From: Minisyncoccota bacterium
Lineage (GTDB): Bacteria; Patescibacteriota; Minisyncoccia; Phycocordibacterales; UBA2100
NCBI GenBank assembly: GCA_035500505.1
Contig: DATJXE010000003.1
Location: 6,921 to 70,920 of the forward strand
Direction: 5' to 3'
Length of the DNA: 64,000 nucleotides
Part shown: positions 35,600-35,958 of the stretch, one piece after another
Layout of the letters: each line of letters opens with the position of its first letter
Numbering within the stretch: the first letter of the stretch is position 1
The notes under the pieces: model-generated
What the model was told of the DNA's origin: nothing
Databases searched by the model: none
The model's input: only the letters and a program-made list of their open reading frames with translations
Made by a program: the position numbers and the translations under genes

Positions 35600-35631
35600 A
35601 ACGGCGGTCGAAGGACCGCCGTTCTGTTTTT
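35600..35631 (+). terminator. rho-independent terminator (aacggcggtc-gaag-gaccgccgtt + ctgTTTTT)
   Basis: 10-bp stem followed by a T-run. Confidence 0.65.
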
Positions 35632-35632
35632 C

Positions 35633-35659
35633 TTGACAGCTTCGAAGGCTCGATATACC
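35633..35659 (+). promoter_or_regulatory. sigma70-like promoter TTGACA - 15/16 nt - TATACC
   Basis: Consensus -35 immediately after the terminator, with a -10-like gATATAcc. Confidence 0.45.
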
Positions 35660-35662
35660 CTG

Positions 35663-35875
35663 AACGCAGTCAAATCCATTGAGCCGGTTCTCCGCCAGGA
35701 GCGGAGGTTGGGGCCGGTGAGGAAGTAGCTGCATGAGTGGCTATTCGGGCTCTCCCGTAACAGAGATAACCGATGTCGTTTCGACGGAGTCGGTAAGACA
35801 AAAGTAAGGTGGTACCGCGAGAAAATCGCCCTTATAACACGAGCATTCGTTCGTGTCATAAGGGCGGTTTTTGTT
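35663..35875 (+). ncRNA. candidate ~210-nt structured RNA (riboswitch-like leader or sRNA) between a promoter and a strong terminator, 84 nt upstream of the ORF at 35959
   Basis: No ORF in the span. Ends in a 16-bp stem (cgcccttataacacga / tcgtgtcataagggcg) followed by a T-run at 35827-35875. Contains several internal hairpins, e.g. ctccgc-cagga-gcggag. Confidence 0.3.
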
Positions 35876-35958
35876 TTCTGTATCCGCAATAGGGACAGGA
35901 AGCGCCGCGTGGTTCTTTCTGTCCTTTAAAATCAAGCATCACTGGGAGCAAGAGGAAC

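Follow-up and report, generated by a model that had tools for sequence, protein, structure and literature searches.

A candidate tRNA-Trp-specific T-box leader with a short Stem I upstream of a flavodoxin-like protein gene in a Minisyncoccota bacterium

In a 64,000-nucleotide (nt) stretch of DNA from a Minisyncoccota bacterium (positions 6,921 to 70,920 of the forward strand of contig DATJXE010000003.1, assembly GCA_035500505.1; hereafter the window), two open reading frames (ORFs), ORF A and ORF B, are separated by an interval that holds a terminator, a promoter and a structured region closed by a second terminator, which raises the question of what kind of RNA this interval encodes. A first-pass annotation made from the sequence alone had proposed an attenuating riboswitch or a stand-alone small RNA and could name no class, because only small-molecule riboswitch motifs had been compared and the ligand here would be a transfer RNA (tRNA). 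Our analysis leads us, with high confidence, to read the region as a leader that precedes ORF B on a monocistronic transcript and would act as a tRNA-Trp-specific T-box riboswitch. The attenuating riboswitch is thus retained, in the form of a T-box with mutually exclusive antiterminator and terminator, and nothing was found to favour the small RNA over it. The assignment rests on family membership by sequence and structure, on covariation, on the register of the specifier codon and on the conserved association with a promoter and with the ORF B family. The element as a whole is located as follows.

35671-35877, + strand: whole T-box leader, comprising the decoding module, the discriminator module and the terminator (match of our covariance model R1, 35671-35877; match of Rfam model RF00230, 35670-35836)

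When Rfam was scanned in E-value mode, the T-box model RF00230 was the sole significant match of the leader, with 48.1 bits and an E-value of 1.5e-9 over the full model (35670-35836, including GGUGGUACCGCG), and in gathering mode Rfam gave no match in the leader region. The Rfam/Infernal scan that the first-pass annotation had recommended thus returned a T-box in the former mode and none in the latter. The low score is mainly explained by the distal part of Stem I, which spans 26 nt in the window versus 76 nt in the model. A small-molecule riboswitch, of a known or a new class, would share the general order of promoter, structured leader, terminator and gene, but with the T-box as the sole significant match and no metabolite riboswitch family in the leader even at E up to 10, this explanation is effectively refuted. 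Furthermore, none of the leaders in 17 genome loci of the Candidate Phyla Radiation (CPR; L004-L012 and L014-L021) reaches the Rfam threshold, the same scan giving 122.7 bits for a Blautia T-box. Since this threshold misses every CPR leader tested, such leaders are probably left unannotated in Rfam-based genome annotation.

The same leader is found upstream of all three sequence homologs of ORF B, and distant members of the ORF B family are also preceded by such a leader. A pattern scan with the exact conserved core, run on species-representative genomes and on metagenomes, yielded 18 genome loci and 39 metagenome loci; because the exact core was required, this sample under-represents the class, possibly with a bias towards Trp and Ser specifiers. 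Seventeen of the 18 genome loci belong to the CPR (Saccharibacteria, Kaiserbacteria, Nomurabacteria and Parcubacteria) and the last one is an ordinary Blautia T-box. Using model R1, built from nine compact leader copies, about 70 related leaders were identified, 54 of them unique and full-length, and those with a named organism come from Patescibacteria (CPR). In the R1 alignment of 25 leaders, 97.4% of the cells are paired and 24 of the 43 pairs display two-sided changes (129 cells); none of 500 shuffles reaches the observed values and slid partners pair in 38-50%. The three helices of Stem I, both Stems II and III and antiterminator helix A2 covary, and Stem IIA and antiterminator helix A1 are invariant. 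The covariation check proposed earlier, based on regions upstream of ORF B homologs, therefore came out in favour of a conserved leader with compensatory changes in 24 of 43 pairs. Furthermore, a strong terminator with a U-run, overlapping the antiterminator, is retained in all of the ~70 leaders.

These comparisons also bear on the second half of the earlier proposal, a stand-alone trans-acting small RNA of ~205 nt. Such an RNA would have its own promoter and strong terminator, as seen here, and a terminated leader would be a discrete RNA. However, the T-box fold accounts for every conserved element, the leader always lies directly upstream of a coding gene on the same strand, and the specifier codon follows the amino acid of the gene behind it, so that we regard a small RNA as highly improbable.

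The leader is preceded by the following elements.

35246-35584, + strand: ORF A, the gene upstream of the leader
35600-35631, + strand: intrinsic terminator of ORF A, with a 10-bp stem (35600-35623, 7 GC pairs), a 4-nt loop and then CTGTTTTTCT
35633-35661, + strand: leader promoter, with -35 TTGACA (35633-35638), a 17-nt spacer and -10 TACCCT (35656-35661)

The ORF A terminator, which was already recognized in the first-pass annotation, insulates the leader from read-through. The near-consensus promoter claimed there stands as far as its TTGACA is concerned, whereas the proposed TATACC (35654-35659, with a 15-nt spacer) is probably 2 nt off, TACCCT being the hexamer that fits the relatives. 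Indeed, a TTGACN, 16-18 nt, TAnnnT pattern occurs in 52 of the 54 unique related leaders, and in 40 of the 52 promoter-bearing leaders the end of the -10 hexamer lies 9 nt upstream of the start of the leader model, as it does in the window. Transcription would then start near 35668, ~7 nt past TACCCT. A generic promoter scan flagged neither hexamer. Terminator-like sites are over-represented in the region (8 observed versus 2.4 expected). No credible ORF was found across 35640-35958, where the + strand holds nothing but mechanical ORFs of 31-45 amino acids (aa), alongside antisense ORFs; those at 35383-35889 (-), 35741-35935 (-) and 35633-35728 (+) over the leader were rejected as mechanical, the conservation being explained by covarying RNA structure. 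The ~210 nt said to lack a plausible ORF are accordingly free of one, and the several hairpins reported there agree with a minimum free energy of -87.8 kcal/mol for 35660-35885, against -68.5 +/- 4.5 kcal/mol for shuffles (z = -4.3; 0 of 200 shuffles as stable).

The leader itself can be broken down into the parts below.

35676-35722, + strand: Stem I, short form (helices 1-3 paired in 92-99%, compensatory changes in 11 of 13 pairs)
C35676-G35722 and C35677-G35721, + strand: base pairs of Stem I
35678-35682 and 35718-35720, + strand: kink-turn (K-turn)-like AUUGA / UGA
35683-35688 with 35713-35718, + strand: proximal helix of Stem I
U35689 facing G35707-G35712, + strand: one-sided specifier loop, a single nucleotide facing six
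35690-35706, + strand: distal hairpin of Stem I, 6 bp with a 5-nt loop
35725-35744, + strand: Stem II, a hairpin of 8 bp with a 4-nt loop, conserved at its top as CUGC/GUGG (99.5% paired; 5 of 8 pairs with compensatory changes)
35746-35765, + strand: Stem IIA (35746-35749 with 35754-35757) and candidate IIA/B pseudoknot, the F-box region
35769-35794, + strand: Stem III (96.7% paired, compensatory changes in 7 of 9 pairs)
35803-35834, + strand: T-box sequence and antiterminator, the T-box AGUAAGGUGGUACCGCG lying at 35803-35819
35805-35809 with 35830-35834, + strand: antiterminator helix A1, invariant
35817-35820 with 35826-35829, + strand: antiterminator helix A2, covarying
35810-35813, + strand: UGGU in the antiterminator bulge, predicted pairing site of the tRNA 3' NCCA end
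35827-35877, + strand: intrinsic terminator, with a 16-pair stem (35827-35866; 5' arm 35827-35842, loop 35843-35850) and then GUUUUUGUUUU

At the base of Stem I, CCAUUGAGCCGG ... CCGGUGAGG aligns to CgaUGAaagGG ... CCcugGAGc of RF00230 and the flanking helices covary, so that a K-turn (GA motif) appears to be present, as assigned by alignment. Stem I is ~47 nt long in the window and has a median of ~57 nt in the relatives, and the distal hairpin above the specifier has a median of 16 nt in the 54 unique ones. Stem IIA is paired in 98% and invariant among relatives. Its loop CUCU (35750-35753) is complementary to AGAG (35762-35765), and the resulting IIA/B pseudoknot, paired in 92% with no covariation, is consistent with the data, not proven by them. 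AGUAAGGUGGUACCGCG conforms to the T-box consensus AGGGUGGNACCGCG, and the antiterminator displays a 7-nt bulge, UGGUACC, at 35810-35816, with helices A1 and A2 paired in 98-99% in 25 relatives. The 5' arm of the terminator shares 35827-35834 with the 3' strand of the antiterminator, and because of this overlap the two folds are mutually exclusive. Their folding energies are -28.6 kcal/mol for the terminator and -8.6 kcal/mol for the antiterminator, and the distal helix of the terminator has compensatory changes in 5 of 6 pairs. The 16-bp stem with a T-run that had been placed at 35827-35875 is thus real, with 16 pairs over 35827-35866 and GUUUUUGUUUU extending to 35877.

Extra lineage-specific hairpins were also observed, inserted at set positions within the leader; the copy in the window is among the most compact. 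They lie between Stem I and Stem II in L003, L004, L006, L009, L016, L018 and L021, past Stem III in L012b, L016 and L017, and in the antiterminator loop in L015 and L021, and they could provide additional tRNA or tertiary contacts.

The identity of the tRNA follows from the specifier loop, whose 3' side reads GUUGGGG in the window, and from the genes behind the related leaders.

35709-35711, + strand: specifier codon UGG (Trp), followed by the purine G35712; 58 of the ~70 leaders have UGG here
Specifier UGG: tryptophan-tRNA ligase, trpS (L019; TIGR00233, 292 bits, above the cut-off)
Specifier UGG: anthranilate synthase I-like, trpE (L014, L052)
Specifier UGG: tryptophan synthase beta, trpB (L062)
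Specifier UCN: phosphoglycerate dehydrogenase, serA (six loci; UCG, UCA or UCC)

Of the ~70 leaders, 58 have UGG and 12 have UCG, UCA or UCC at loop positions 3-5; positions 1-2 vary (G/A, then U/C), position 6 is always G and position 7 covaries with the 5' strand. Because the downstream genes fix the register and three synonymous Ser codons share the same position, the specifier of the window copy is read as UGG, and the leader most likely senses uncharged tRNA-Trp. All Ser leaders and most Trp leaders carry UGGC in the bulge; eight leaders, that of the window among them, have UGGU. G73 is the usual discriminator of bacterial tRNA-Trp and tRNA-Ser; as both UGGC and UGGU are able to pair with G73, both fit it. 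Short-Stem-I Ser T-boxes with UCG, UCA or UCC were observed in L010, L012, L015, L017, L018, L023, L028, L035 and L059.

A T-box for another tRNA would have to read GUUGGGG as UUG (Leu), GUU (Val) or GGG (Gly), triplets that the loop does hold, and U35813 would be able to pair with an A73 discriminator, which Leu and Val tRNAs carry. However, loop position 2 varies between U and C whereas UGG at positions 3-5 is invariant, the trpS, trpE and trpB leaders read ACUGGGU, GCUGGGU or GUUGGGC, the serA leaders read one base earlier would all give UUC (Phe), and the UGGC bulge of most Trp leaders cannot pair with A73. The Leu, Val and Gly readings were consequently rejected on the register across relatives, and a tRNA other than tRNA-Trp is very unlikely to be the ligand.

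In the mechanism that we propose for this tRNA-Trp-specific T-box, transcription would start ~7 nt after the -10 TACCCT and Stem I would present UGG (35709-35711) to the anticodon of tRNA-Trp. If the tRNA is uncharged, its free 3' NCCA end would pair with UGGU (35810-35813) in the bulge and stabilize the weak antiterminator (-8.6 kcal/mol), allowing the RNA polymerase to continue into ORF B. With a charged tRNA or no tRNA, the stronger terminator (35827-35877, -28.6 kcal/mol) would form and transcription would end near 35875. The binding of the tRNA and the direction of the response are inferred from membership of the T-box family.

Whether the main output could lie elsewhere depends on the spacer between the terminator and ORF B, where two further features were found.

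35893-35924, + strand: second conserved hairpin, GGACAGGAAG ... CUUUCUGUCC, rich in purines in the 5' arm and in pyrimidines in the 3' arm
35950-35961, + strand: Shine-Dalgarno-like AAGAGGAA (35950-35957) and the ORF B ATG, outside the terminator helix

In 17 relatives, the second hairpin is paired in 96.5% and has compensatory changes in 5 of 10 pairs; it was predicted independently by RNAalifold, has a folding energy of -21.1 kcal/mol, and is matched by its own model, R2, at 35890-35929 with 48.5 bits. That it might be a genome-wide repeat was discarded, R2 being strong only at the ORF B copy (13 bits at the serA copy). Its role in mRNA stability or translation is a speculative guess. Hairpins of the same type (GAAAG in the 5' arm, CUUUC in the 3' arm) were observed on the + strand before serA (33651-33693) and ORF A (~35181-35224); that of serA starts ~13 nt past the -10 of a TTGACT, 16 nt, TAGAGT promoter at 33611-33638.

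It is conceivable that the T-box acts mainly on translation or mRNA stability via the second hairpin, with a leaky or secondary terminator. The T-boxes known so far to have a short Stem I without a platform are translational switches, a conserved covarying hairpin does lie between the terminator and the Shine-Dalgarno sequence, and the same hairpin type is present in the 5' untranslated regions of serA and ORF A, both of which have no T-box. Against this stand the terminator and U-run kept in all of the ~70 leaders with a covarying distal helix, the location of the Shine-Dalgarno sequence ~75 nt past the terminator and outside its helix, and the lack of conserved pairing between the second hairpin and the Shine-Dalgarno sequence in the RNAalifold prediction. 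We hold this output to be unlikely, although less so than the other alternatives considered here.

Several points weigh against a transcriptional tRNA-Trp-specific T-box. The leader fails the RF00230 gathering threshold, with 48.1 bits for a cut-off of 93 bits, and the covariation values come from an alignment of related sequences that was fitted to the model and is thereby biased in favour of the proposed structure. Stem I has neither the AG bulge nor the distal loop that form the tRNA-elbow platform (interdigitated T-loops), and according to a 2020 review transcriptional T-boxes generally need this platform, a short Stem I being a trait of the translational T-boxes of Actinobacteria. Neither the window nor any of 61 loci yielded a tRNA-Trp gene. 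Finally, no connection of ORF B with tryptophan metabolism is known, and the specifier-to-gene match of the window copy would rest on the relatives. Reviews call the platform essential to transcriptional T-boxes and dispensable in translational ones only, and explain this by the fast tRNA capture that co-transcriptional decisions demand, and a 2024 paper gives the same rule and reports that in ileS-type T-boxes Stems II and IIA/B compensate for the lost elbow contact. By analogy with the mycobacterial ileS T-box, the missing elbow platform is probably offset here by Stem II and IIA/B.

The comparison with known systems is instructive in this respect. Like the class I transcriptional T-boxes of Firmicutes (tyrS and glyQS of Bacillus subtilis; RF00230), the leader has a Stem I with a basal K-turn, a specifier codon with a purine behind it, Stems II and III, a candidate IIA/B pseudoknot, a 14-nt T-box sequence with a UGGN bulge, and an antiterminator competing with an intrinsic terminator for an attenuation output, which is predicted here from sequence. 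Unlike them, its Stem I is ~47 nt long instead of ~90-100 nt and is devoid of the AG bulge, the distal loop and the interdigitated T-loop platform; its specifier loop is one-sided, its Rfam score is below threshold and its host is a Patescibacterium. With the class II translational ileS T-boxes of Actinobacteria (Mycobacterium tuberculosis ileS) it shares a short platform-less Stem I together with Stem II and IIA/B. Those leaders sequester the Shine-Dalgarno sequence, whereas a 16-bp terminator with a U-run is found here and the Shine-Dalgarno sequence (35950-35957) lies ~75 nt downstream; the amino acid and the phylum also differ.

Two further systems resemble the window leader in the genes that they control. 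The rtpA (anti-TRAP) leader of B. subtilis, attributed to work by Chen and Yanofsky in 2003, is said to consist of a Trp T-box and, behind it, a leader peptide containing Trp codons. In both cases, a Trp T-box would control a gene that encodes neither a synthetase nor a biosynthetic enzyme, and early Trp codons occur in the first frame (W11 of ORF B, and GVGWGAGW peptides in relatives). In contrast to rtpA, the GWG motif shows conservation at the protein level and forms one protein with the ORF B domain, and ORF B is unrelated to anti-TRAP; there is no evidence for Trp codons as a second sensor in the window leader. Trp T-boxes are also reported to precede trp operons and Trp transporters in Firmicutes, for instance trpX of Streptococcus suis. 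The UGG specifier and the association with tryptophan supply genes are common to both, as CPR relatives precede trpE, trpB and trpS, whereas the window copy would control an uncharacterized flavodoxin-like protein.

Taken together, the leader is a switch of a known type in a variant that is new both in structure and in phylogeny, found across ultra-small Patescibacteria. We lean, by a narrow margin, towards the broader view that a previously undescribed, Patescibacteria-wide class of T-boxes, combining a platform-less short Stem I with intrinsic termination, defines an unseen tryptophan-starvation regulon in these ultra-small episymbionts. Our literature search found no link between T-boxes and CPR, Saccharibacteria or Patescibacteria, which is not proof that the class is undescribed. 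The regulon may include the ORF B family, small GWG-motif proteins, the YbdK-like ligase described below, trpS, trpE and trpB. If true, the class would contradict the rule that transcriptional T-boxes need a contact with the tRNA elbow; a conserved, covarying, platform-less Stem I joined to a terminator would be a natural counter-example, and the kinetic argument becomes directly testable. Patescibacteria have reduced genomes and take nutrients from host bacteria; their regulation has been called largely unexplored, and a recent perspective names riboswitches as promising for genetic tools. Such leaders would mark genes that are switched on at the shortage of a single amino acid, including families of unknown function such as that of ORF B, and are candidate native control elements for these tools. 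The proposed Trp regulon adjoins Ser T-boxes and Phe leader-peptide attenuators.

The gene that would be regulated in the window is the following.

35959-36474, + strand: ORF B, 171 aa, with a flavodoxin-like predicted fold and an N-terminal GWG motif

Its ATG at 35959 agrees with the 84 nt that the first-pass annotation had counted from 35875, and the resemblance of the N-terminus MAKERKHTLGWGS to that of L016, MSRERKTIGWGS, supports the start codon. ORF B has no match in Pfam or NCBIfam and no homolog among PDB sequences; three sequence homologs were found among 5.8 billion proteins, and a profile search of 1.84 billion representatives extended the family to 26 members. The AlphaFold2 model has a predicted local distance difference test score of 91.5 and a flavodoxin-like alpha/beta fold, for which all Foldseek matches in the PDB were generic (flavodoxin, CheY, TIR and SIS folds; TM-score at most 0.54). 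Members of the family are located behind Trp T-boxes in 17 loci, some of which adjoin genes for prephenate dehydratase, prephenate dehydrogenase, chorismate synthase and 5-enolpyruvylshikimate-3-phosphate synthase, and ORF B is very likely part of a tryptophan-starvation response. No kinship between ORF A and ORF B is detectable (BLASTP E=0.19; hhalign probability 1.9%), and a 173-aa protein of L005 was dismissed as a relative of ORF B since the alignment is not convincing.

Residues 7-13 of ORF B read HTLGWGS (window 35977-35997), W11 being an early Trp codon. Many first ORFs behind Trp T-boxes likewise carry a GWG or GFG motif at their beginning, as in RGVGWGAGW (L004, L006, L016, L020, L022, L029, L037, L039, L043, L055 and others), and many of these proteins are small and of low complexity, with a GW-containing tail such as GWHNSQLTD. 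The GWG motif is found either on a small ORF of its own before the ORF B homolog or in one protein with the ORF B domain, and no N-terminal GWG/GFG motif was found in any of the ORFs behind Ser leaders. It may be a motif of the protein, or else a second sensor based on Trp codons.

Further genes that immediately follow Trp T-boxes (L026/L056, L042, L049, L036, L048/L054) encode a YbdK-like carboxylate-amine ligase, a protein resembling the N-terminal domain of phosphoenolpyruvate synthase and a 482-aa protein with no NCBIfam match. In L042 and L049, the YbdK-like ligase is followed by a protein with a YFAYGSNM motif, read as gamma-glutamylcyclotransferase-like, the L042 copy having no NCBIfam match. 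After ORF B in the window, an 89-aa ORF (36692-36961, + strand) has no Pfam match, and similar proteins, with shared motifs such as E..V...L..WL..DG....L...DI, occur near Trp T-boxes elsewhere, in L012 encoded by the first ORF after the T-box and in L034 ~0.8 kb downstream. This ORF may belong to the same regulon.

Upstream of ORF A, a probable Phe leader-peptide attenuator was observed at 34974-35125 (+ strand). Its promoter (TTGACA, 16 nt, TATGCT; 34974-35001) precedes a 23-codon peptide with 7 Phe, MQSFSAQNFSFFFFFTDRRGATV, from ATG at 35008 to TAA at 35079; as the ATG lies only ~7 nt past the -10, the transcript may be leaderless. The pairing 35059-35070/35101-35112 competes with a terminator at 35102-35118 followed by CUUUUC, and the Rfam Phe_leader model gives a weak match (24.7 bits, E=0.047). 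F-rich peptides (MSNGR..FFFFFF) were seen in L004, L009, L011, L021, L022, L032, L034, L037 and L055, that of L022 before prephenate dehydratase. With the T-box and the probable Phe attenuator of ORF A side by side, the neighbourhood is thus read as a cluster of amino-acid-responsive attenuators. Upstream of serA (33681-34925), no T-box was found within 33400-33700, which holds only a promoter and a hairpin; relatives carry a Ser T-box at this place.

On a larger scale, a weak tRNA-like match at 45149-45217 (+ strand; Rfam tRNA, 30.5 bits, barely above threshold, with no ARAGORN call) could, as judged by eye, represent a tRNA whose anticodon is UGG and whose D-arm is odd. The 16S (30288-31748, - strand) and 23S (47659-50787, - strand) rRNA genes lie ~16 kb apart, with serA, ORF A, ORF B, secDF, a folD-like gene, glycosyltransferase genes and FtsW between them. 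The 23S match covers 3129 nt on a model of 2925 positions, which suggests an insertion. A 16S gene is also located near the T-box cluster in L006, L012, L015, L017 and L020.

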